DNA from: an uncultured Victivallales bacterium
GTDB taxonomy: Bacteria > Verrucomicrobiota > Kiritimatiellia > UBA8416
Direction: 5' to 3'
Assembly (NCBI GenBank): GCA_964609395.1
Contig: CAZSRU010000003.1
Span: 19,635 to 83,634 of the forward strand
DNA: 64,000 nucleotides
In this document: positions 26,904 to 38,637 of the stretch, in pieces
Position numbering within the stretch: position 1 is the first letter of the stretch
Layout of the letters: every line of letters starts with the position of its first letter
Notes under the pieces: generated by a model
The model's database searches: none
Seen by the model: only the letters and a program-made list of their open reading frames with translations
What the model was told of the DNA's origin: nothing
Translations under genes and position numbers: made by a program

Positions 26904-28694
26904 ATGAACAAGACAGAACGCATTGCGGTAGCGGTGCTGATCGGATTGCTGGTTGCATGGTCGTATTTCGGGCGCCGCCTGATGCCGTCGACTCCTCCTC
27001 CGCCAGTGCCGGCGGAGACCATTGCGGGTGAGGCGACCATTGACGGCGCGACTGCCCCCGCCGCGACCGGTCTGCCTGCCGGGGATGCGCCGGCACCGGC
27101 TCTTTCCGTACCGGGGACGAACGCGGCACCGGTCTCATTGCCTGCGACGGCAGAGATGACGCCGGTCGTCCGGTCCACGGAACCCGTCGTGGTGGAGGTT
27201 ACCAACGCGGTCATGCGCCTGCGTTTCACGTCGTGGGGCGGGGGACTGGCATCGGCGTCGCTCATCGACTTCCGCAGCACGGTGGATGCGGACAGCACTC
27301 CGGTCATCTTTGATTTCGCCGACCGCATCGCCCTGAGTTATACCGGATTGCCGGGGCTCTCGGAGGCGGATGATTTCAGTGTCGAACCGGTTGACGGCAA
27401 TGGTGTTCGTATGTCGCGCCAGGCGGACAGCGGGCTGGTGCTGGAGCGGACCGCCGTGCTGGAAGAGGGCTATGCGTTCACGATTACCGATCGCCTGATC
27501 AATACCGGCTCGACGCCGGTTTCCATTAGCGAGGCCAGCCTGCAGACGGGCTCCATGCGGATCATGGAAGCGGGGCCTGCCATGCGCGGGATGGATTATC
27601 TGGGTGTCGATGCCCTGCGTAGCGGTGATGACAAGATCGAGCGCGTCGGCAAGGCGCTGCCGGGACTTTTCGGGGTGCGGGGCGGTTGCTCGCGGGCGGA
27701 TTTGACCGTGGCACCGATGGCTGCCACGATTGACTTGCCGCTTCCGCTGGCGTGGGTGGCCGTAAAGAACAAGTTCTTCACGCAGATCCTGGCTCCAGTG
27801 GAGGGCGGCACGTCTGCACGCGTGCGGGCGATTCGTGCGGATATACCTGCCGACTTCGCACTGGACACGGTTTCCGCCTCGCTGGCGTTGCCGGCGGCGG
27901 TCATCGAGCCGGGCGCGACTTTTGAGCGGCAGACCCGCTATTATGTCGGCCCGAAAAAATATGCGCAGTTGAAAGCGGAGGGCAATCGCCGCACCGAGAT
28001 CATGGATTTCGGACGGTTCTTCAAGCCGGTCTGCAAAGTGCTGCTGCCGCTGCTCAACGGCATCGAGATGGTGGTGCCGGGCGGATATGGCATGGCGATT
28101 ATCATGCTGACGATCATCGTCAAACTGGTCTTCTGGCCCGTGACCCACAAGGGCACCGAGAGCATGAAGCGGATGCAGAAGCTGCAGCCCGAGATCAAGA
28201 AGCTGCGCGAGCGTTACAAGAGCGATCCGAAGAAGCTACAGGAGAAGCAGATGCTGCTTTACCGCGAGCACAAGGTCAATCCGCTGGCGGGCTGCCTGCC
28301 GATGCTGATCCAGATCCCGGTGTTCATCGGCCTGTTCACCGTGTTGCGCAGTGCCGTGGAGTTGCGGTTCACCCGTTTCCTTTGGATCCGCGACCTGAGC
28401 GAGCCGGAAGGTCTGCTGGTTGGCTTGCTGCCGTTCCCGGCGGGCGGGTTGAACATCCTGCCGCTACTGATGACGGCCACGATGGTGCTGCAGCAGCGCC
28501 TGACCCCGAGCGTAGGCGACCCGCAGCAGCAGAAGATGATGGCCTTCATGCCGGTGATGATGCTCTTCATCTTCTACAACATGCCGTCGGCGCTGGTGCT
28601 GTACTGGACGGTGAGCCAAGTGCTTTCCATCCTGCAGCTCGTGCTGCAGCAGCGCAAGGATCGCCTCACGGCACTGGCTGTTGTTCCGGCTTGA
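26904..28694 (+). CDS. yidC: Membrane protein insertase YidC
   Basis: WVAVKNKFF, YYVGPK, YGMAIIMLTIIVK, NPLAGCLPMLIQIPVFIGL, WIRDLS, PSALVLYWTVS. Confidence 0.96.
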   Translation: MNKTERIAVAVLIGLLVAWSYFGRRLMPSTPPPPVPAETIAGEATIDGATAPAATGLPAGDAPAPALSVPGTNAAPVSLPATAEMTPVVRSTEPVVVEVTNAVMRLRFTSWGGGLASASLIDFRSTVDADSTPVIFDFADRIALSYTGLPGLSEADDFSVEPVDGNGVRMSRQADSGLVLERTAVLEEGYAFTITDRLINTGSTPVSISEASLQTGSMRIMEAGPAMRGMDYLGVDALRSGDDKIERVGKALPGLFGVRGGCSRADLTVAPMAATIDLPLPLAWVAVKNKFFTQILAPVEGGTSARVRAIRADIPADFALDTVSASLALPAAVIEPGATFERQTRYYVGPKKYAQLKAEGNRRTEIMDFGRFFKPVCKVLLPLLNGIEMVVPGGYGMAIIMLTIIVKLVFWPVTHKGTESMKRMQKLQPEIKKLRERYKSDPKKLQEKQMLLYREHKVNPLAGCLPMLIQIPVFIGLFTVLRSAVELRFTRFLWIRDLSEPEGLLVGLLPFPAGGLNILPLLMTATMVLQQRLTPSVGDPQQQKMMAFMPVMMLFIFYNMPSALVLYWTVSQVLSILQLVLQQRKDRLTALAVVPA

Positions 28695-29673
28695 CGTCGC
28701 GCGACATGAGGGCCTCGACCGCCTGAAGCGGAGAGGCACCCTCGTGCAGGATGCGGCAGACCTGTTCGGTGATCGGAACCTCTATACCGTGTTCCGCCGC
28801 CAGTGCTTTGGCATTGGCGGCGTTCCAGACGCCCTCGGCCACCTGCTTCATGCCGCCGGTAATCTGCGCCAGGCTCTCGCCTCGGCCCAGCCGTTCACCG
28901 ACCCCGCGGTTACGGCTGTGCCGGCTGGTGCAGGTCACGATCAGGTCGCCCATGCCGCTGAGGCCGGCGAAGGTCTCCGGCCTGCAGCCGAGCTCGGCTC
29001 CCAGTCGGGAAATCTCGCTCAAGCCGCGCGTGATCAGCGCGGCGCGCGTATTGTCGCCGAACCCGAGTCCGTCGCTGATGCCCACGGCAATGGCGATCAC
29101 GTTCTTCAGTGCCCCCCCGATCTGGACGCCGGTAACGTCGTCGGCGGTATACACCCGGAAACGGCTGTTGTTGAAAACCGCCTGCAGGGCCGCACTATCC
29201 TCCCCGCGTGGCGAGGCCACGACGACAGCGGTCGGGATGCCGCGAGCGACTTCCTCCGCGTGACTCGGACCGGAGAGCGCGGCTGCACAGGGGATACCGA
29301 GACACTCGCGCGCGATTTCCGTCATCGTCCGGTGCGTCTCGCGATCCAGGCCCTTGGTCACGCTGATCACCTGGGCGGACGGGGCGATCAGGCCCTTGAA
29401 GCGGGATGCCACGTCGCGGTAGAACTGCGTGGGGACCGCCATGACGACGACCTCCGCCTCGCGGGTGGCCTCGCCCGCATCCGTGGTCCAGCGTATCCCG
29501 GCCGGCAGCGTGACGCCGGAGAGGTAGGTGCTGTTCATGCCGGTTTCGCGGACCGCGCGGATATTCTCCTCGAACGGTCCCCACACCGTCACCTGATGGC
29601 CGTTCTGCTGTAGCACCATCGCCAGCGCCGTACCCCAGCCGCCATCCCCGATTACCGTTGCCTTGATACCCAT
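28666..29673 (-). CDS. gpsA: NAD(P)H-dependent glycerol-3-phosphate dehydrogenase
   Basis: IGDGGWGTALA, ALSGPSHAEEV, GGALKNVIAIA, GLSGMGDLIVTCTSRHSRN, VAEG. Confidence 0.96.
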   Translation of the reverse strand: MGIKATVIGDGGWGTALAMVLQQNGHQVTVWGPFEENIRAVRETGMNSTYLSGVTLPAGIRWTTDAGEATREAEVVVMAVPTQFYRDVASRFKGLIAPSAQVISVTKGLDRETHRTMTEIARECLGIPCAAALSGPSHAEEVARGIPTAVVVASPRGEDSAALQAVFNNSRFRVYTADDVTGVQIGGALKNVIAIAVGISDGLGFGDNTRAALITRGLSEISRLGAELGCRPETFAGLSGMGDLIVTCTSRHSRNRGVGERLGRGESLAQITGGMKQVAEGVWNAANAKALAAEHGIEVPITEQVCRILHEGASPLQAVEALMSRDVKPEQQPVP

Positions 29674-29800
29674 CACTAACCCCTGTCATAATTCGTTTGT
29701 AAAACCGTATTATCGAAACCCCGTTTGAAATTCCTCATGGATGCGGACTGCACAGTATGGAAAATCGAGCCAAGTCGCAATCCAAAAGGCAACTGATTGC

Positions 29801-29937: not shown

Positions 29938-32076
29938 ATGAAACCGATTGACAATGCGAAGGCGCGATTGCTGGGTAAGACGGGGTACCGCTGGAGTTTC
30001 CGGCGGGTGGGCGGGGTTGATCAGGTCCTGCTGCGCAACGGCGAGGATATTGCCAACATCCCGGAGCTGGACCAGAAGCTCTGGCTGGCCCTGGGGATGC
30101 CTACGCGCGGTATCGCGCTGGATCCGCGCACGGCGGATCTGCTGGATACCGATGGCGACGGGCGCATCCGCCCGCCGGAACTGATTGCCGCGATCAAGTG
30201 GTGCGCGACAATCTTCGTGGATCTCGGCTGTATCATCGAGGGCGGCGACCGTGTTGCGCTGGCCAGCATCCGTGACGCCCGCATCCTGGCCGGTACCCGG
30301 CGGATCCTGAATAACCTGGGCCGGGCGGATGCCGAGGCGATTACGCTGAACGATGTCGCCAATCAGGGGGCGATCTTCGCCAACACGCGCTTCAACGGCG
30401 ATGGGGTGGTCCCGCCCGGTTGTGCCGAGGATCCGGCGGTTGCGGCCGCGATCACGGATATCATCAAGACCGGCGGCGGCACGAAGGACCGCAGCGGCAA
30501 GGATGGACTGGATGCTGCCGGACTGGATAAATTCCTGGCGGAGGCGAAGCGCGTCCTGGACTGGTCGCGCCGCGGACGTGAAGAACCCCCAGCCTATCCG
30601 TTGGATCCCGGGGCGACGGCACGGGCCGCGGCCGCGCTCAGTGCCGTTCGGGCCAAGGTCGATGATTACTTTGCGCGCTGCCGGGTGATCGGGTTCGACG
30701 AACGGGCCGCCGCCGTCCTGAACGGGGATGCCGCCGACTACAAACCCTTCAATGGCCAGATGCTGAGCGCCTCGGCATCGGAGTTGTCGGCGCTCCCGCT
30801 GGCGCGGGTGGCCGCGGACGCGGCCTTGCCGCTGGTGGACGGCCTCAACCCTGCCTGGGCGGGGGCGATGGCGATCCTGCGGGATCAGGCGGTCGCGCCG
30901 CTGCTTGGCGGTGATGCCCAGGAATTGAACGCCGAGGGCTGGTCGCGACTACAGGGGGCACTCGCCGCCTACGAGGCCTGGCAGGCGGCGAAACCGGATT
31001 CACCTGTGATGACGCTCGCCGAGGACCGCCTGGAAGCACTGACCGCCCCCGCGCTGGTCGAGGCGATTCGCGGGCTGATTGCCAAGGATGCCTCCCTGAA
31101 GGAGGAGAACGACCAGATCGGCAAGGTCGAGCAGATGATCCGCTTCCATCGCGATCTTTATGAAGTGCTCACCAACTACGTTAACTTCGCCGACTTCTAC
31201 GGTCAGACCTATGCCGTCTTCCAGGCGGGGAGTCTTTACCTGGACGCGCGGGCCTGCCATTTATGCATCGAGGTGACCGATGCGGCGCGGCATGCGGCGA
31301 TGGCGGGGCTTTCCAATGCCTACCTGGTCTACTGCGATATTTCCCGGGCCAGCGAGAAGCGCGGCATTGTGGCCGTGGTGACGGATGGCGATTCGCAGAA
31401 CCTGGGCGTTGGACGCAACGGCGTGTTCTATGACCGCGACGGCAAGGACTGGAGCGCGACGATCACCCGCGTGGTCTCGAACCCGATCAGCATCCGCGAG
31501 GCCTTCTGGCTGCCGTACCGCAAGCTCGTCAGGCTGGTCGAGGAGCAGATCGCCAAGCGGGCGCAGGCGGCCGAGGCCGCCTCCATGGCCCGCATGGATT
31601 CGACGGCATCCACGCTGGCAAGCGCCGACCAGGCAAGGCCGTCCACCGCCATAACCCCGGATGCTCCGAAAAAAATCGAGCTCGGGGCAATCGCCCTGAT
31701 CGGTACGGTGATCGGCGGTCTGAGCGCACTGGTGGCCGGCTTCCTGCAGGTACTCTTCGGGCTTGGCTACTGGCTGCCGCTCGGGTTGCTGGGTGTGATC
31801 TTGCTGATCTCGGGACCCTCCATGCTGCTGGCGGCGATCAAACTCAAGCAGCGCAACCTGGGTCCGATTCTCGATGCCAACGGCTGGGCGATCAACACCC
31901 GGGCGCGGATGAACCCGGCCTTCGGCGCGGCCCTGACAGAGCTGGCCCGCCTGCCTCCCGGCTCGGAGCGGTTCCTTAAGGATCCGTACGCCGCCAAACG
32001 GTTCCGCCCCTGGCGGACCGCCCTGCTGCTGGCCATACTGGCCGGACTGATCTACGTCCGGTGGAGAATGTGTTGA
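29938..32076 (+). CDS. Uncharacterised EF-hand-containing protein with C-terminal transmembrane segments
   Basis: Canonical EF loop DTDGDGRIRPPE at 30145-30180. No signal peptide. Hydrophobic helices near the C-terminus (IALIGTVIGGLSALVAGFL, WLPLGLLGVILLISGPSMLLAAI, and the terminal LLLAILAGLIYV). Confidence 0.75.
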   Translation: MKPIDNAKARLLGKTGYRWSFRRVGGVDQVLLRNGEDIANIPELDQKLWLALGMPTRGIALDPRTADLLDTDGDGRIRPPELIAAIKWCATIFVDLGCIIEGGDRVALASIRDARILAGTRRILNNLGRADAEAITLNDVANQGAIFANTRFNGDGVVPPGCAEDPAVAAAITDIIKTGGGTKDRSGKDGLDAAGLDKFLAEAKRVLDWSRRGREEPPAYPLDPGATARAAAALSAVRAKVDDYFARCRVIGFDERAAAVLNGDAADYKPFNGQMLSASASELSALPLARVAADAALPLVDGLNPAWAGAMAILRDQAVAPLLGGDAQELNAEGWSRLQGALAAYEAWQAAKPDSPVMTLAEDRLEALTAPALVEAIRGLIAKDASLKEENDQIGKVEQMIRFHRDLYEVLTNYVNFADFYGQTYAVFQAGSLYLDARACHLCIEVTDAARHAAMAGLSNAYLVYCDISRASEKRGIVAVVTDGDSQNLGVGRNGVFYDRDGKDWSATITRVVSNPISIREAFWLPYRKLVRLVEEQIAKRAQAAEAASMARMDSTASTLASADQARPSTAITPDAPKKIELGAIALIGTVIGGLSALVAGFLQVLFGLGYWLPLGLLGVILLISGPSMLLAAIKLKQRNLGPILDANGWAINTRARMNPAFGAALTELARLPPGSERFLKDPYAAKRFRPWRTALLLAILAGLIYVRWRMC

Positions 32077-32134
32077 ATTAATATTGAAGAAAGTTGGGTC
32101 GAGAAGCGTTTATAGTTTAAAAGGGAGGAAGACT

Positions 32135-35100
32135 ATGAAGAAGGCGATTGTGTGTGCGTTGCTGTTGCCGTTGCTGTCGTTACGGGCGGCTGATGGGAAT
32201 GATCTGGAATTCATGGAGGCGTTCGCCTGGGGGGATCGCGCGGCCGCCCTCACCCAGCTTGTGCCCGATACCGAGGACTATTTCTTCTACCATTGCCTGA
32301 GCTATCAATTGTCCGGGGATCGCGACGCTTTCCAGAAAACGCTGGATAAATGGGTCTCGCGCAACCGCAACAACTGGAACGAGCGGATGCTTGAAATGCG
32401 TCGTCGGCAGATGCTGCTGGATATGGATCGCTCGCCCGAGGCGGTCTGGGCGTTTCTCAAGCAGGATGCCGGTCTGTCCTTCAACCACCGCGCCCGCCAT
32501 GAGCAGACCAGCCAGCGCCATCCCTCGGTCATCAAGCCGGAACAATACAGCATTGACGCCTTCTGGCGGCAGCACGGGAATTCCGAACTCGATAAACTCA
32601 CCGACCGCGGTCTTGAGCTGCTCCCCGATCCGAATGCCAATCCGGATCAGCGCCGTGCCTTCCTGCGTCGATTGACGCTGCCGGATTATTCCGGTCTGGT
32701 CAAGCTGATCCTGGCCGATCTTGACTATAAGGAGCAAAACGGCAACATCACGGTCTTCGGCCAGATGCCGATCCATGGCAAGCTTACGACCGATCAGTTG
32801 GTGGAGCTTGTTGCGCAGCGTCCGGCACTGCTGCGCGAGGCCGACTATATCAATGCACGGCTGGTGCGGATGCCGCCGCCGGATGCCGACCTGGCGAATG
32901 ATTCCCCTGCTGCCGTGGCGTACCTGGAGAGTCTGTGGGCCTTTGTGGAGCCCCTTGAGCCGATCCATAACTCCCTCAAATCCAATATCCTGTATCAGCT
33001 CCTGTCCCATCAGCGCAAGCTGGGGGTGTACGATGCGGTCCGGTTCCGTGCCTATCTGGACCTACCACGGCAATGGGGCTTCATCCTCCGTGACCGGATG
33101 GCGCGCCTGCAGAAGGAACGGGCCGTGTGGGTGGATGTGAATTACCAGCTCGGCGGATCGATCAGCCTGCCGCCGATCGGGAACGATGAGCCGTTGATTC
33201 GCGAGTTCCTGATCGAACTGCTCAAGGATGCCGAGGATTCGTCGCGCTTCCAGGACATCTTCGAGGCCCGCTGGCTGGATTCGGTTTTCGCCGAAAGCAA
33301 GATCCTGCATGGCGTCGGCACCCCGGCGCAGTGGTCCTCGCGGCTTGGTCCGACAGCTTATCGCTCCCTGCTGGATCGCATTGAACTGGACTTCGCGCCG
33401 CAGAACCCCGCCTACTTCAAGCCGGGACAGCCCGTGGAACTGGCGGTGGACCTCAAGCGGGTGGACCGCCTGCTGGTCAAGGTCTTCGAGATCCAGACGT
33501 TCAATTACTACACCACCCGCCGCGCGGCGATTGACCAGGCCGTGGAGCTTGACGGCATGATCGCCTCGCACGAGCGCACGCTCGAGACGGCGGCCGATCC
33601 GTCGCGCCGCACACGCCACCGGATCGCGCTGCCGGAAATCAAGACGCGCGGCGTCTATGTGGTGGAGCTGATCGGGAATGGCGTCAGTTCGCGGGCCTTG
33701 CTGTATGTCGGCCACCTCGAGGCGATCAGCCAAGTGACTCCGGCGGGACTGGCCGTCATGGTTCTTAATGATGCTGGCGAAACGGTCAAGGACGCGGCCG
33801 TATGGATCGACGAACGCGAGTTCACGGCCAATGACAAGGGGCTGGTGCTGCTGCCGTTCACGGACACTCCGGGCACCCGTTTCGCCGTATTACGCGCCGG
33901 CGATTTCTGCAGTGCGCAGCAGATCGAGTTGCAGGATGAGGAGTATGCATTTTCCGCTGGTATCCATCTCGATCCCCAGAACCTACCGCGCCAGCACCGG
34001 GGAACGCTGATCCTGCGTCCCGATTTCCGCATTCATGGCATACCTATCGACCCGGCGCTGCTGGGAGAGGTCAAGGTCACCCTGACCGCTGTCGATGCCA
34101 AGGGCGTCAGCACGGCCCGCGAGTACAAGGCCACTTTCGCCCGCAATACCGAATGGTCGGAATCCTTTTACGTGCCGGATGCCCTGCGCAGTCTTTCAGT
34201 CGCCGTCGAGGCCAAGCTGAAACGCAAGCGGGATCTTGAGGAAATCACACTGAACGATCAACGGACCGTGGAGCTTAATCCGGCCCGCCGCGGGGATGCG
34301 CTTAGTCAGGTGTTCCTGGTGCCTGCCGCCGATGGATGGCGGCTTGAGGTGCGAGGCCTGACCGGCGAGCCGATCGGGGCGGTTCCCTTGAGTCTGGAAA
34401 TGTATCATCCCGGGTTCAACCATTCCGTGACAATCCATGCCAGCACCGATGCCGCTGGTGTGGTTGCCCTTGGACCGCTGACGGCACTTTCGCGGATTTC
34501 CGTTTCCGGACCGGGGAACCTGCGGTTGGATCGATCTTTGTCGGGGGCGGAGGTGGTGTGGCCTAGCCTACTGCACCTCAAGACGGGCGAAGCTGTCTCC
34601 CTGCCGTATCCTTATGACCGCCAAGCGGATCTGCGCCAGATTTCGCTTTTCAAGCAGCGTGGCGGCGCGGTTCTTGGCGGTGGCACCTCGATAGCTGAGC
34701 GGATTCGAATGATCGGGACGGAGGCGATTCTGTCTGATTGCTCGGCGCTGGTCACGCTCAAGGACGGGGAACTGCGGATCGAAGGCATGGAGCCGGGGCA
34801 ATACGAGCTCGTGGCGCATGAGAACGATCGTCGCATCTGGCTGGAGGTTGCCGAGACCGAGGCCCGTTCCGGGTATCTGCTGGGGAAGACCTCGCGTTGG
34901 CAGCAGACGGGCAATCGCCTGCCTTCAGCGGCCGAGGTGTCGGAAAAGGACGGCAACTTGCACCTGCGCCTGCGCAACGTTACAACCGGCACCCGCGTGG
35001 CGGTACGGGCCGCGCGCTATGTCGATCCGGGATCGGCATTTCCCGAGGGCTATGGCTTCACCTCGCCGGTCAAGCGCGACATGCTGCCTCCCTATGCCCA

Positions 35101-38100
35101 GTATGCCAACGGACGCCGCATCGGCGATGAATACCGCTACGTGCTGGAGCGTCGTTCGCTCGAGAAATTCGCGGGGACCCTGCTTGAGCGTCCCGGCCTG
35201 ATCCTCAATCCGTGGGAGCTGCGTGATACCACGGCCGAGCAGGAACGGCTGAAGGGCGATCAGGCTTATGCGTCCGGACGGCAACAGGTGGCTGCTGATG
35301 CGATGATGGAGGGTGCAGCCATGATGCGCTATGGCGGATCAGTCAGCCGGATGGGCGGGCGTGCCCCCCAGACCGTTGACATCGGGTACGACTTCCTGCC
35401 GCAGGGCAGCCAATGGGTCGTGAACGCCGTGCCTGACACGAATGGCGTGGTCACGATCCCGCTCGGCGACGCACCGGAACATACGGCGCTGGATATCGTC
35501 GTGCTGGACCGGTTCGGGCTCAGCCGGTTCCGGCATCTGAGACCGTACCAGTCCTTTAAACCCACCGATACGCGCCTGCTTAGCGGTATGAAGCCGGACG
35601 AGGCCTTCAGTCGCCAAAAGCGTATCCGGGCGCTGGCCACCGGGGAGAAGGTCACGTTTGCCGACACGGCTACGACACGTTACCGCGCCATCAGCACCCT
35701 GGGGCAGGCCTTTGACCTGCTGCAGGTTCTCAACGGCGATGCCACGGTGCCGGAGTTCGCCTTCCTCAAGAACTGGCCCACCCTGGATGAGGCTGCCAAA
35801 CGCGAAAAGTACGGCAAATACGCCTGCCATGAACTCAACCTCTTCCTGCAGCAACACGATCCGGACTTCTTCAAACGGGTCATCAAGCCTGCCCTGGCCT
35901 GCAAGAAGGACAAGACCTTTGTAGATCGCTGGCTGCTGGACGCGCTGACCGCCGAGGATCTGCGGCTGGATCGCCTGCAGCAGCGCAATGCGCTGGAACT
36001 GGCCTTGCTGGCCAAGCGCGGCGGCGATGCCAGCCAGATGCAGGCGGCCTTGCGGGAGGCGTGGGAACTGCTTCCACCGAACCCGGACGCCTTTGCGCGG
36101 CTCGTTCGTACCGCGTTGCAGTCGGGGGAGCTGGACAAGCCCGTTAGCGGTTTTGGATCTGCGGAAGGCGAAACAATAGACACGGGTGAGGCGGTAAATT
36201 CGCCGGTCATGATGAAGGCAGCCATGGCACCCAGGCCTGCGGCGGCGCGGCGCATGCGTGCAGAGTTGTCCGATTCTATGATGCTGCTGGAAGCTGCCCC
36301 TGCGCCTGCCGCTGAGGCGGCACCAAGCTTTGCGATGGCCGAGCCGATGGCGGATGCGGATAAAAAGGAGGCGGAGGAGACCGTGCTATTCGATATGGAG
36401 GGGGTAGCATTTGGTGGCGAAGAAGTCCGCCTGTACCGAGCCTTGCCGGCGACCAAGGAATGGGCCGAGCAGAACTACTACCGTGTTCGGGCCAAGGATG
36501 ATCTGCCCGCGCGTCTCCCCGCGAATGCGTTCTGGCTGGATGTAGCTGGAGGCAAGGCGCTGTCCGGTAACCTGCTGGAGGCGCATCGCAACCTGACTGA
36601 CGTGATCACCGCCCTGGCGTTCTGCGGACTACCGTTCGAGGCAGAGCCCGTCGCTGAGACGACCGGTACGAACGGCCTGACTCTTGCGGCGGCCTCTCCC
36701 GTGCTGCTGGTCATGGAGCAGGTCCTGCCCGCGCCGGTGGCGGCGGATGACCGTCCGCTGCTGATCTCGCAGCAGTTCTTCCGTCCCGATGACCTCTACC
36801 GCTTTGAGGGCAACGAGCAAATCGAGAAATTCGTTGCGGGTGAATTCGTGCGCCGGGTGGTGTATGGCGGACGCGTCACCCTGACCAACCCCACGGCCTC
36901 GCGCCGGGTGCTCAACGTCCTGCGTCAACTCCCCCTGGGGGCGATCCCGCTGCGTGACGGGGTGATGACCGATGACGGCGTGGTGCGGCTTGAACCGTAC
37001 ACCACCCAGAAGATCGAGTATTTCTTCGTCTTCCCGTTCGCGGGTCAGTTTGCCCAGTTCCCGGCCCAGGCCGCGGCGGGCGAGACCGTGGTGGGCAAGG
37101 CCGAGGCGCGCCAGTTCAACGTGGTGGATGAGCCGACCGAGGTGGACAAGACCTCCTGGGCTTGGATCTCGCAATATGCCCCGGCCGACGACGTGCTGGC
37201 ATTCCTCAAGGCGGAAAACCTGCGGCGGCTGGAGCTTAACGAGATCGCCTGGCGGCTCAAGGATCGCGGCTTCTTCACCCAGGTGACCGATCTGCTGACG
37301 GCACGGGGCCTGTTCCACGACACGACATTCTCGTATGGCATCTTCCACAAGGACGCTGACCGCACCCGCCTCTGGCTGGCCCGCAGCAGCCTGGCTGGGA
37401 GGGTGGGCCCGGTGCTGGATTCCCCGTTGCTGCAGGTCGATCCGGTGGAGTCTAAAGTCTACGAGCATCTGGAATACGATCCACTGGTCAATCCGCGGGT
37501 ACACCAGGTGGGCGAGAAGCACAAGATCCTCAACACGGCGCTCGATGCCCAGTACCGGTCGTTCCTGAGGACGGCGGCCTACCGGGCCAATTGGCCTGCC
37601 AGCGAACGGCTGGGGCTGGTCTATTACCTGCTGCTGCAGGATCGGCTTGCCGAGGGTTTTTCTGAACTGGCGAAGATCGACGACAAGGATCTGTACGACA
37701 AGGTGCAGGTGGATTACCTGCGTGCCTGGGTGGCGCTGCGCCAGCTTGATGTCAAGCGTGCTGCAAAGCTGGCTGAAGCGTACCAGGATTATCCTCTGCC
37801 GCGCTGGCAGGCGCGTTTCCGTGCGCTGACCCAGGCGATTGCCGAAGCGCAGGGGGCGGAAATCGCCGAGCTTGATACACCCAACCGGCAACAGGATCTC
37901 GACCGGCAGGCGGAGCGGACACCGTCCCTGGCGCTCAAGGCCGAGACGGGTAAACTCTGGCTGACGGCGCATCATGTCGGGCAGGTCACGCTGAACCTCT
38001 ACCCGATGGACATCGAGCTGATGTTCAGTCGCAAGCCATTCCTCGCGGAAGGAGCGACGGACTTCGCGGTGATCCGTCCGGCCTTGTCGCAGACGCTCAA

Positions 38101-38494
38101 GATCAAGGCCAACGGCGAGCCGGAAGAGCTGACGCTGCCGGCGGCCTATGCCAAACGCAACCTGATGGTTGAAGTCGTGGGCAAGGGGCGGCGTGCGGCG
38201 ACGGCCTGGTATGCCAACCAGTTGCGTGTGCGCGTGATCCAGGATTATGGGCAGATCGATGTGCGCGGAGCGGCGGATGGGAAACCCTTGCCAACGACGT
38301 ATGTCAAGGTCTTTGCGCGGGGGGCGGACGGACGCGAGCAGTTCTGGAAGGATGGCTACACCGATCTGCGGGGACGCTTCGATTACCTGTCCCGCAATGA
38401 TCGCAAGCCCGAGGAGGCCGTGGAATTCTCCATCCTCGTCCTGCATCCGGAGCTGGGCGCGGAAATCCACAGCGCAACGCCACCGGCGAGGTGA
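32135..38494 (+). CDS. Giant (2119 aa) exported protein, alpha-2-macroglobulin-like architecture (tentative)
   Basis: Signal peptide MKKAIVCALLLPLLSLRA. Segments resemble MG domains (YFKPGQPVELAVDL, GVYVVELIGNG, GKPLPTTYVKV..YTDLRGRF). Low-complexity Ala/Met/Glu segment at about 36180-36420. No CxEQ thioester motif seen. GGGAGG SD. Confidence 0.65.
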   Translation: MKKAIVCALLLPLLSLRAADGNDLEFMEAFAWGDRAAALTQLVPDTEDYFFYHCLSYQLSGDRDAFQKTLDKWVSRNRNNWNERMLEMRRRQMLLDMDRSPEAVWAFLKQDAGLSFNHRARHEQTSQRHPSVIKPEQYSIDAFWRQHGNSELDKLTDRGLELLPDPNANPDQRRAFLRRLTLPDYSGLVKLILADLDYKEQNGNITVFGQMPIHGKLTTDQLVELVAQRPALLREADYINARLVRMPPPDADLANDSPAAVAYLESLWAFVEPLEPIHNSLKSNILYQLLSHQRKLGVYDAVRFRAYLDLPRQWGFILRDRMARLQKERAVWVDVNYQLGGSISLPPIGNDEPLIREFLIELLKDAEDSSRFQDIFEARWLDSVFAESKILHGVGTPAQWSSRLGPTAYRSLLDRIELDFAPQNPAYFKPGQPVELAVDLKRVDRLLVKVFEIQTFNYYTTRRAAIDQAVELDGMIASHERTLETAADPSRRTRHRIALPEIKTRGVYVVELIGNGVSSRALLYVGHLEAISQVTPAGLAVMVLNDAGETVKDAAVWIDEREFTANDKGLVLLPFTDTPGTRFAVLRAGDFCSAQQIELQDEEYAFSAGIHLDPQNLPRQHRGTLILRPDFRIHGIPIDPALLGEVKVTLTAVDAKGVSTAREYKATFARNTEWSESFYVPDALRSLSVAVEAKLKRKRDLEEITLNDQRTVELNPARRGDALSQVFLVPAADGWRLEVRGLTGEPIGAVPLSLEMYHPGFNHSVTIHASTDAAGVVALGPLTALSRISVSGPGNLRLDRSLSGAEVVWPSLLHLKTGEAVSLPYPYDRQADLRQISLFKQRGGAVLGGGTSIAERIRMIGTEAILSDCSALVTLKDGELRIEGMEPGQYELVAHENDRRIWLEVAETEARSGYLLGKTSRWQQTGNRLPSAAEVSEKDGNLHLRLRNVTTGTRVAVRAARYVDPGSAFPEGYGFTSPVKRDMLPPYAQYANGRRIGDEYRYVLERRSLEKFAGTLLERPGLILNPWELRDTTAEQERLKGDQAYASGRQQVAADAMMEGAAMMRYGGSVSRMGGRAPQTVDIGYDFLPQGSQWVVNAVPDTNGVVTIPLGDAPEHTALDIVVLDRFGLSRFRHLRPYQSFKPTDTRLLSGMKPDEAFSRQKRIRALATGEKVTFADTATTRYRAISTLGQAFDLLQVLNGDATVPEFAFLKNWPTLDEAAKREKYGKYACHELNLFLQQHDPDFFKRVIKPALACKKDKTFVDRWLLDALTAEDLRLDRLQQRNALELALLAKRGGDASQMQAALREAWELLPPNPDAFARLVRTALQSGELDKPVSGFGSAEGETIDTGEAVNSPVMMKAAMAPRPAAARRMRAELSDSMMLLEAAPAPAAEAAPSFAMAEPMADADKKEAEETVLFDMEGVAFGGEEVRLYRALPATKEWAEQNYYRVRAKDDLPARLPANAFWLDVAGGKALSGNLLEAHRNLTDVITALAFCGLPFEAEPVAETTGTNGLTLAAASPVLLVMEQVLPAPVAADDRPLLISQQFFRPDDLYRFEGNEQIEKFVAGEFVRRVVYGGRVTLTNPTASRRVLNVLRQLPLGAIPLRDGVMTDDGVVRLEPYTTQKIEYFFVFPFAGQFAQFPAQAAAGETVVGKAEARQFNVVDEPTEVDKTSWAWISQYAPADDVLAFLKAENLRRLELNEIAWRLKDRGFFTQVTDLLTARGLFHDTTFSYGIFHKDADRTRLWLARSSLAGRVGPVLDSPLLQVDPVESKVYEHLEYDPLVNPRVHQVGEKHKILNTALDAQYRSFLRTAAYRANWPASERLGLVYYLLLQDRLAEGFSELAKIDDKDLYDKVQVDYLRAWVALRQLDVKRAAKLAEAYQDYPLPRWQARFRALTQAIAEAQGAEIAELDTPNRQQDLDRQAERTPSLALKAETGKLWLTAHHVGQVTLNLYPMDIELMFSRKPFLAEGATDFAVIRPALSQTLKIKANGEPEELTLPAAYAKRNLMVEVVGKGRRAATAWYANQLRVRVIQDYGQIDVRGAADGKPLPTTYVKVFARGADGREQFWKDGYTDLRGRFDYLSRNDRKPEEAVEFSILVLHPELGAEIHSATPPAR

Positions 38495-38500
38495 CCGGAA

Positions 38501-38590
38501 AATCGTGATCCGTAATCGTCGCCCGTAATCGCTCGCCGGGTCGTATATTGGTCGGTTGACGATAGCGGGCGACGATTACGGATTACGATT
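38501..38590. repeat. 25-bp-arm inverted repeat built from CGATTA-like hexamers
   Basis: AATCGTGATCCGTAATCGTCGCCCG (38501-38525) and CGGGCGACGATTACGGATTACGATT (38566-38590), with one G.T pair. Lies between convergent genes. Confidence 0.9.
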
Positions 38591-38637
38591 AATACCTGGA
38601 GGGCCGGGTTCAACCCCGGCCGCGCGTTGCAAGCCGC

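Follow-up and report, generated by a model that had tools for sequence, protein, structure and literature searches.

The genes considered here lie side by side on the plus strand of a 64,000-nucleotide stretch of contig CAZSRU010000003.1 (positions 19,635 to 83,634; assembly GCA_964609395.1) from an uncultured Victivallales bacterium. This whole stretch is called the window. Gene 1 (29938..32076) is an open reading frame (ORF) of 712 amino acids encoding an inner-membrane protein from a large unnamed family with an EF-hand loop. Gene 2 (32135..38494) encodes an exported protein of 2119 amino acids, counted from MKKAIV, that belongs to another large unnamed family and has a macroglobulin-like fold. 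The locus is rather likely to hold two independent, uncharacterised genes that came to lie together in one lineage. Gene 2 would then encode an array of macroglobulin (MG) domains without the thioester-containing domain (TED) of the alpha-2-macroglobulins (A2M), and gene 1 an inner-membrane protein with a Ca2+ loop. If so, they are paired by chance in one small lineage, and the "two-gene unit" seen here by an original prediction, which was made from the letters of the window, dissolves as a system.

The distribution of the two families was surveyed in 301 genomes sampled evenly from the window's class and in a sample of 151 genomes from its phylum. In the class sample 106 genomes have gene 1, 75 have gene 2 and 40 have both. 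Only one of these 40, that of the window itself, has them side by side. Gene 1 is missing from 35 of the 75 genomes with gene 2, and 66 genomes with gene 1 have no gene 2. In two single-contig genomes that hold both, the distance between them is 0.5 and 2 Mb. In the phylum sample gene 1 occurs in 68 of the 151 genomes and gene 2 in 12, all of them from the window's class. The 80 genome loci retrieved around gene 1, with flanks of 8 kb, contain no gene 2; nor is gene 1 present in the 80 metagenome loci retrieved around gene 2, of which 50 have at least 2.2 kb of upstream sequence. Thus gene 1 and gene 2 do not form a conserved system, since adjacency fails in 39 of the 40 genomes with both genes and in all 160 loci. 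Clustering of the flanking ORFs (80-85 loci) yielded no conserved neighbours of gene 2.

Close relatives of gene 2 have varying upstream regions. In a genome of the same genus (G187), where gene 2 is 86-90% identical (L212:2595, contig 107), mscL lies upstream in divergent orientation, and gene 1 was not found in the assembly. The DNA similarity between this genome and the window starts exactly at the ATG codon of gene 2 (32135). A relative with an 84% identical gene 2 (L211) has a glycoside hydrolase family 2 (GH2) gene and a sulfatase gene upstream, and two more distant ones (L169 and L210, 62-64% identity) have other genes. As regards adjacency, therefore, the two families do not keep company elsewhere, synteny being lost already in G187 and L211. 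Three different upstream neighbours are found among four close relatives, which marks the region 5' of gene 2 as a hot spot of rearrangement.

The family of gene 1 is far broader than that of gene 2. It comprises more than 4400 clusters of homologs, every one of them annotated as "hypothetical", and is usually represented by a single copy per genome. Homologs with 42-58% identity were found in Verrucomicrobiota, Kiritimatiellia, Lentisphaerae, Myxococcota, Planctomycetota, Gamma- and Betaproteobacteria, and in metagenome-assembled genomes of Spirochaetes. Such conservation across phyla is unusual for an unstudied protein. Searches of Pfam, NCBIfam, PADLOC and PDB with the sequence or with the family profile gave no matches apart from a sub-threshold EF-hand. 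The AlphaFold model of gene 1 has a mean predicted local distance difference test (pLDDT) score of 81.5, and Foldseek comparison of the whole model with PDB gave no matches at E <= 0.001. The weak Foldseek matches to ClyA-type pore formers and Tudor domains are not credible, and both assignments were rejected. No conserved neighbours of gene 1 were found by clustering of flanking ORFs in 80 loci. The only recurrent one is a gene for an outer-membrane beta-barrel protein of the DUF481 family, which adjoins gene 1 homologs in 9 of the 80 loci (e.g. L012:3547-4506).

The EF-hand loop of gene 1 (residues 70-81, 30145..30180, DTDGDGRIRPPE) lies between modelled helices 63-69 and 79-92. It is a canonical loop of 12 residues running from D70 to E81. 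Its key positions are conserved throughout the family: D70 and D72 in 48 of 48 homologs, G75 and I77 in 47, D74 and E81 in 46. Nevertheless, the score against the Pfam model EF-hand_6 is 14.3 bits versus the cut-off of 25, and the pair model EF-hand_7 is matched by one of the 48 homologs (E = 0.0017). A second loop (NGDG, residues 153-156) is degenerate and has no acidic residue in position 1. The likeness to EF-hand proteins of the calmodulin type (the Pfam EF-hand clan) thus consists in a canonical, family-wide 12-residue loop between two helices. The difference is that here a single canonical loop with a sub-threshold Pfam score is set in a 712-residue membrane protein whose fold is otherwise unmatched.

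The model of gene 1 starts with a small N-terminal beta unit, followed by the helix-loop-helix (residues 63-92), a helical domain (97-420), a small beta domain (431-513) and a long helix. Then come a disordered linker and the transmembrane hairpin, and a basic stretch beside the membrane precedes the last hydrophobic helix. The beta domain (31228..31476, delimited by the model strands) contains residues C440, C443, H452 and C466 (31255-31335 for residues 440-466). These four and C248 are kept in 46-48 of the 48 homologs, with C440 and C443 present in every one. The Cys3-His cluster is therefore a putative metal site, besides the EF-hand. The transmembrane hairpin (residues 585-634, 31690..31839) consists of two strong hydrophobic helices, 585-603 and 616-634, recognised both by hydropathy and in the model. 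After it comes NLGPILDANGWAIN, the motif with the strongest conservation in the family, delineated by invariant columns. The C-terminal hydrophobic helix (residues 691-711, 32008..32070) is present in the model but falls below the hydropathy threshold, so it is an uncertain membrane span.

The membrane topology of gene 1 was read from the sequence, the hydropathy profile and the model. The loop between the two helices of the hairpin has about seven residues. From the lack of a signal peptide and the basic residues that border the hairpin on its two cytoplasmic sides, the protein is predicted to be almost wholly cytoplasmic, with only these seven or so residues in the periplasm. The protein would consist of a cytoplasmic N-terminal domain of about 560 residues, carrying the EF-hand loop and the Cys3-His cluster and anchored by the hairpin. 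Judging from these parts alone, its most likely role is to link Ca2+ in the cytoplasm, and perhaps a second metal, with some membrane event. The textbook EF-hand loop, the C-terminal transmembrane segments and the lack of a signal peptide had all been noted in the original prediction, and are borne out by the homologs, the hydropathy and the model helices. The Ca2+-sensing membrane partner for gene 2 that it derived from them is not, given the cytoplasmic location of the bulk of the protein, the short periplasmic loop and the breadth of the family.

On the model that follows from the original prediction, the two genes would work together in the envelope: the EF-hand protein of the membrane would sense Ca2+, and would control or anchor a macroglobulin-like protein devoid of a thioester. 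The arrangement that the prediction described is real. The genes are co-oriented and separated by 58 nucleotides, gpsA is divergent upstream, and a strong hairpin is located downstream (ORFs; folding z = -7.7). Some facts indeed weigh against the independence of the two genes. Judged from the gap, which has no terminator-like site, gene 1 and gene 2 may be co-transcribed in this genome. Gene 1 is also retained upstream of gene 2 in a relative with an 80% identical gene 2 (L168), although with a spacer of 309 nucleotides and a different gene further upstream. Besides, the presence of gene 1 and that of gene 2 are positively, if weakly, associated in the class sample (odds ratio 2.8, p = 3e-4, ignoring phylogeny and genome size). 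There is also a precedent, as MagD, a type II A2M of Pseudomonas aeruginosa, depends on the membrane partners MagA, MagB and MagF (PMC5764988). However, a shared transcript may arise simply from the 58-nucleotide spacing, and the association in presence does not amount to linkage. The envelope system is already largely refuted by the synteny survey: adjacency in one of 40 genomes and none of 160 loci, its absence from G187 and L211, and the many genomes with only one of the genes. In addition, gene 1 is found in many phyla, whereas in the phylum sample gene 2 is restricted to the window's class. Finally, the periplasmic exposure of gene 1 is almost nil. Being almost wholly cytoplasmic, gene 1 is therefore badly placed to be a partner of the exported gene 2 protein. 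All in all, a dedicated system of this kind is very improbable, and two independent genes brought together in one lineage remain the preferred explanation.

The macroglobulin-like nature of gene 2 is seen at the level of the fold. An AlphaFold model was built for residues 431-1630 from an alignment of 83 sequences (pLDDT 80.3, predicted template modelling score 0.75). Comparison of this model with PDB by Foldseek gave 153 matches at E <= 0.001. The top 50 of the 153 are all chains of the A2M superfamily (A2ML1, A2M, C3, C4, C5, TEP1, CD109 and ECAM of Escherichia coli), with E-values from 8e-16 to 1e-9 and probability 1.0. The best global template modelling score (TM-score) is that to ECAM, 0.25/0.20, and the A2M structures reach at most 0.25. 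Since the top 50 matches are exclusively chains of the A2M superfamily, the model supports the reading of the core of gene 2 as an array of macroglobulin-type beta-sandwich domains.

At the same time, gene 2 lacks most hallmarks of A2M. There is no CxEQ thioester motif in gene 2, and among 84 family members it occurs in two sporadic, non-homologous positions. No A2M-family model of Pfam matches gene 2 at E <= 1 or any of 23 family members at E <= 0.05. As a positive control, the true A2M encoded in the same genome matches seven of these models. The helical content of the modelled part (431-1630) is confined to a single domain of 140 residues. Alignment by hhalign of both helical regions of gene 2 with the TED of the true A2M gave probabilities of 0.1-0.2%. 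The YACHEL motif of gene 2 (residues 1229-1234) was considered as a relic of Y-G-C-x-E-Q and rejected: the invariant residues are the histidine and the glutamate, not the cysteine, and the helical domain matches the TED with probability 0.1%. The C-terminal domain of penicillin-binding protein 1c (PBP1c), PF06832, is absent from the entire assembly, and no partners of the mag or yfaS type flank gene 2, the neighbours being gene 1, gpsA and a dehydrogenase of the medium-chain dehydrogenase/reductase (MDR) type. Of six features of A2M, gene 2 lacks four (family models, a recognisable TED, thioester, genomic partner) and has one (the MG array); for the sixth, a bait region, its two disordered, hypervariable segments are candidates. 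Thus gene 2 is not a member of A2M by the defining features of that family, but a variant sharing the MG array.

Residual similarity to the true A2M of the genome is marginal. Profile alignment by hhalign matched residues 425-685 of gene 2 with residues 401-727 of the A2M (probability 51%), and residues 1936-2119 with residues 411-615 (70%). Both matches fall on the N-terminal MG-like pair of the A2M (residues 401-615). BLASTP between the two proteins gave E = 0.035 over one MG domain.

Bacterial A2M are of two types. The type I protein of E. coli, ECAM or YfhM (PDB 5a42, 4ziq), is a lipoprotein with a CLEQ thioester in a TED nested in a CUB domain, and is paired with pbpC (PMC4498604). Like ECAM, gene 2 is a large exported MG-array protein with flexible variable segments. 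Unlike ECAM, it has no thioester, detectable TED or lipobox, is matched by no Pfam A2M-family model, contains extra regions of about 430 residues at the N-terminus and about 500 at the C-terminus, and resides in an assembly without PBP1c. MagD of P. aeruginosa and YfaS of E. coli are type II proteins, periplasmic and devoid of the thioester (PMC5764988, PMC3735191). MagD traps a protease non-covalently (PMC5764988), and this is the mechanism proposed below for gene 2. The dependence of MagD on membrane partners also resembles the idea behind the original prediction. However, MagD retains A2M domains recognised by Pfam and is encoded in the conserved six-gene mag operon, whereas gene 2 is solitary, has no conserved neighbour and escapes the A2M models of Pfam. 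In the literature types I and II are described, and no TED-less family with the architecture of gene 2 was found.

The true A2M of the same genome (G000 contig 23:14079-20429; locus L170:7077-13430, minus strand) has 2117 residues. It is similar to gene 2 in its near-equal length, export, MG domains and the weak profile similarity in the N-terminal MG-like pair. However, it contains YPYGCTEQ at residue 1579 and the Pfam domains MG2, A2M_BRD, A2M, TED_complement and bMG10, and in genome searches it forms a family separate from gene 2. Its N-terminal 400-600 residues or so are outside the Pfam coverage. It is surrounded by lpxB-like, CHASE2-cyclase and dus genes, not by pbpC.

The gene 2 family is strictly colinear, with a length of about 2100 residues, and contains more than 1600 clusters at 90% identity. 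A profile search with the central 1200 residues in 1.84 billion representatives retrieved 5441 clusters at 50% identity (E <= 0.001). It revealed no bridge to A2M, and the best 150 matches share one architecture. Neither the sequence of gene 2 by itself nor a profile of 49 sequences had a match in Pfam, NCBIfam, PADLOC or PDB, and residues 985-1335 used as a separate query retrieved only fragments of the same family. A search for internal repeats by hhalign gave weak pairs only (probability 21-35%).

The protein starts with a signal peptide (about residues 1-19, 32135..32191), read from the sequence as MKK, a hydrophobic core and LRA/A, with no lipobox. It is kept in the family consensus, where it ends with AxA-Q. 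The N-terminal region (residues 20-430, 32192..33424) is conserved in the family and does not resemble the N-terminal part of the true A2M. The helical, TPR-like stretches named in the original prediction would belong here. The region is followed by an array of beta-sandwich, MG-like domains (residues 431-990, 33425..35104), modelled entirely as strands with pLDDT mostly 80-95. The most conserved block of the protein (residues 991-1027, 35105..35215, IGDEYRY...RPGL(I/L)LNPW, mean column identity 0.76) has pLDDT below 50 in the partial model, where residues 995-1077 are a low-confidence stretch. Probably this block either packs against the N- or C-terminal parts outside the model, or is a conserved linear motif. 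After the first hypervariable linker there is a further modelled beta-sandwich domain (residues ~1085-1185, 35387..35689), and then a compact domain of 11 helices (residues 1189-1329, 35699..36121), which is not a thioester domain and carries the near-invariant patterns YACHEL and KKDKTF.D.WLL. The second hypervariable linker is followed by a beta-rich region of the model (residues 1440-1630, 36452..37024). The C-terminal two-domain beta module, recognised by hhalign (residues 1936-2119, 37940..38494), ends with KDGYTDLRGRFDY and is similar to CarboxypepD_reg; the corresponding Pfam model PF13620 is matched in 5 of 23 family members.

Variable stretches of gene 2 are located at residues 841-870, 1040-1082 and 1333-1437. 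The first linker (residues 1040-1082, 35252..35380) is rich in glycine, alanine and methionine and varies from 32 to 76 residues across the family. The second one (residues ~1340-1437, 36152..36445) is rich in alanine, methionine and glutamate, is predicted to be disordered (pLDDT 30-47), and varies from 70 to 174 residues without sequence conservation. Both flexible segments, Gly/Ala/Met-rich overall, are present in every member of the family and have essentially no conserved sequence. They look like a bait region, but equally like a linker. As for the sequence features of gene 2 that had been read off earlier, all are present. The MG-like character is confirmed at the fold level, the modelled residues 431-1630 having only A2M-superfamily chains among the top 50 matches. 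The signal peptide, judged by eye, is of the Sec type and has no lipobox. The unstructured Ala/Met/Glu segment placed at about 36180-36420 coincides with the second linker, and is of low pLDDT and hypervariable. The absence of CxEQ extends to the whole family, no conserved position having it among 84 members, and that of PBP1c to the whole assembly.

The gene 2 protein of the window belongs to a well-supported subclade. Within the class sample its type is closest (51-63% identity) to genes from other taxonomic families, and three genomes of the window's own family (G227, G244, G253) have only a type of gene 2 with 34-36% identity. This distribution indicates paralog sorting or horizontal transfer. 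Two full-length homologs in tandem on the same strand were observed in G228 (contig 133:1735-14266), and two copies are present in G362.

The sole functional clue to gene 2 comes from ecotin, a protease inhibitor. Ecotin genes are rare, being found in 16 of the 301 genomes of the class sample, and gene 2 is present in 12 of these 16 (Fisher p = 2e-5, odds ratio 10.6, ignoring phylogeny). In six genomes (G044, G080, G188, G195, G212, G254) ecotin is located directly downstream of gene 2, at 91-324 nucleotides and on the same strand. All six belong to one taxonomic family, a sister to that of the window, and their gene 2 proteins to the same subclade as that of the window; the same arrangement is seen in locus L005. 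This adjacency supports a protease-related role for gene 2. In one metagenome locus (L090) a serpin gene is directly upstream of gene 2. On the preferred mechanism, gene 2 would encode a periplasmic or cell-surface protein that binds proteases or shields against them non-covalently, similar to the thioester-less MagD, with the exposed variable segments as the parts accessible to proteases. Non-covalent trapping is plausible for a protein without a thioester because MagD acts in this way (PMC5764988).

Tentatively, the gene 2 family may be considered a third class of bacterial macroglobulin-like envelope proteins. Its members, of about 230 kDa, would have no TED or thioester, possess extra helical modules, and capture proteases or shield against them non-covalently via hypervariable segments, in some lineages together with ecotin. 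Quite apart from this, gene 1 and its relatives would form a new kind of Ca2+-responsive device in the inner membrane, their fold having no counterpart in PDB and their occurrence spanning at least five phyla. This combined proposal is possible, although short of likely. It retains from the original prediction of a thioester-less envelope defence or scaffold the MG fold, the missing thioester and the flexible segments, and drops the Ca2+-dependent pairing with gene 1. Several points tell against the functions preferred here for the two genes. The protease role is argued from fold resemblance and an ecotin adjacency seen in one taxonomic family, and this adjacency may go back to one event in an ancestor. 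The genome of the window itself has no ecotin. Serpin genes, present in 100 of the 301 class genomes, are never adjacent to gene 2 in these genomes (about 30 have both). The model spans residues 431-1630, and a domain within residues 1-430 or 1631-2119 could alter this view. Any mechanism for gene 1 is a guess, as it has no relative of known function by fold or by sequence.

Two other explanations of gene 2 have to be considered. It could be an envelope scaffold, an adhesin or a glycan-binding protein assembled from Ig-like, CarboxypepD_reg-like and helical modules, with no protease role, the likeness to A2M reflecting shared domain ancestry. The lack of a TED, a thioester and Pfam A2M matches agrees with this, as do the low global TM-scores to A2M structures and the fact that CarboxypepD_reg alone is detectable at the sequence level. 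A very constant length and conservation over the whole length would suit a scaffold. Moreover, in other genomes gene 2 often has glycoside hydrolase, sulfatase and esterase genes as neighbours, although such genes are abundant throughout these genomes. On the other hand, generic Ig-array proteins are not found among the top 50 fold matches, all of which are from the A2M superfamily. The six ecotin genes directly downstream and the serpin gene upstream in L090 also speak against a scaffold, as does the likeness of the two exposed, hypervariable segments to bait regions. A purely structural role is thus somewhat doubtful. Much less probable is that gene 2 is a highly divergent bacterial A2M of type II, similar to MagD and YfaS, whose TED has diverged beyond recognition in the parts outside the model. 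Such a protein would account for the Foldseek probability of 1.0 to A2M-superfamily chains including ECAM and for the marginal profile matches at residues 425-685 and 1936-2119, and a helical region indeed exists outside the model, at residues ~1690-1935. However, neither helical region resembles the TED (0.1-0.2% by hhalign), the profile matches miss the diagnostic A2M, BRD, TED and MG10 domains, none of 23 family members is matched by the Pfam models, although these recognise type II proteins and the true A2M of the genome, and operon partners of the mag or yfaS type are missing. A distinct TED-less MG-array family accordingly remains the preferred description of gene 2.

Neither family has a name in Pfam or NCBIfam, a solved relative, or a paper that could be found. 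With more than 5000 clusters at 50% identity, the gene 2 family means that bacterial MG arrays exist without the thioester machinery that defines A2M. If gene 2 does bind proteases, the known repertoire of bacterial envelope defences would be wider, and the family would offer a simple TED-free model of target trapping by MG arrays. The gene 1 family bears on Ca2+ signalling in bacteria, which is poorly understood.

The genes flanking the pair are yidC, the divergent gpsA (28666-29676, minus strand) upstream of gene 1, the convergent gene of the MDR-type dehydrogenase, waaA and an ABC-F gene. A sigma-70-like promoter match, TTGATA-18-CATAAT with an extended TG (29663..29692, plus strand), is located upstream of gene 1. 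It is a consensus match only: the region contains two promoter-like matches, the number expected from shuffled sequences, and this is the only one near the pair. The open frame of gene 2 starts earlier, with TTG at 32084, and the counted start is the ATG at 32135. The spacer between the genes (32077..32134, plus strand) holds the Shine-Dalgarno box of gene 2, GGGAGG, 6 nucleotides 5' of the ATG. A consensus scan of these 58 nucleotides gave no terminator-like and no sigma-70-like sites. In the relative L168 the corresponding spacer (L168:7800-7980) shares with the window the core CGTTTATAG(G/T)TTAA and has about 200 nucleotides of extra DNA with palindromes headed by GTAG. The extra DNA looks like an insertion resembling repetitive extragenic palindromes (REP) or miniature inverted-repeat transposable elements (MITE).

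The region between the convergent genes downstream of gene 2 (38501..38621) contains a long hairpin followed by a GC hairpin. Its folding energy is -82.3 kcal/mol, with z = -7.7 versus shuffled sequences. The long hairpin consists of about 26 near-perfect pairs and contains hexamers similar to CGATTA and CGACGA, and the GC hairpin that follows it has no U-tail.

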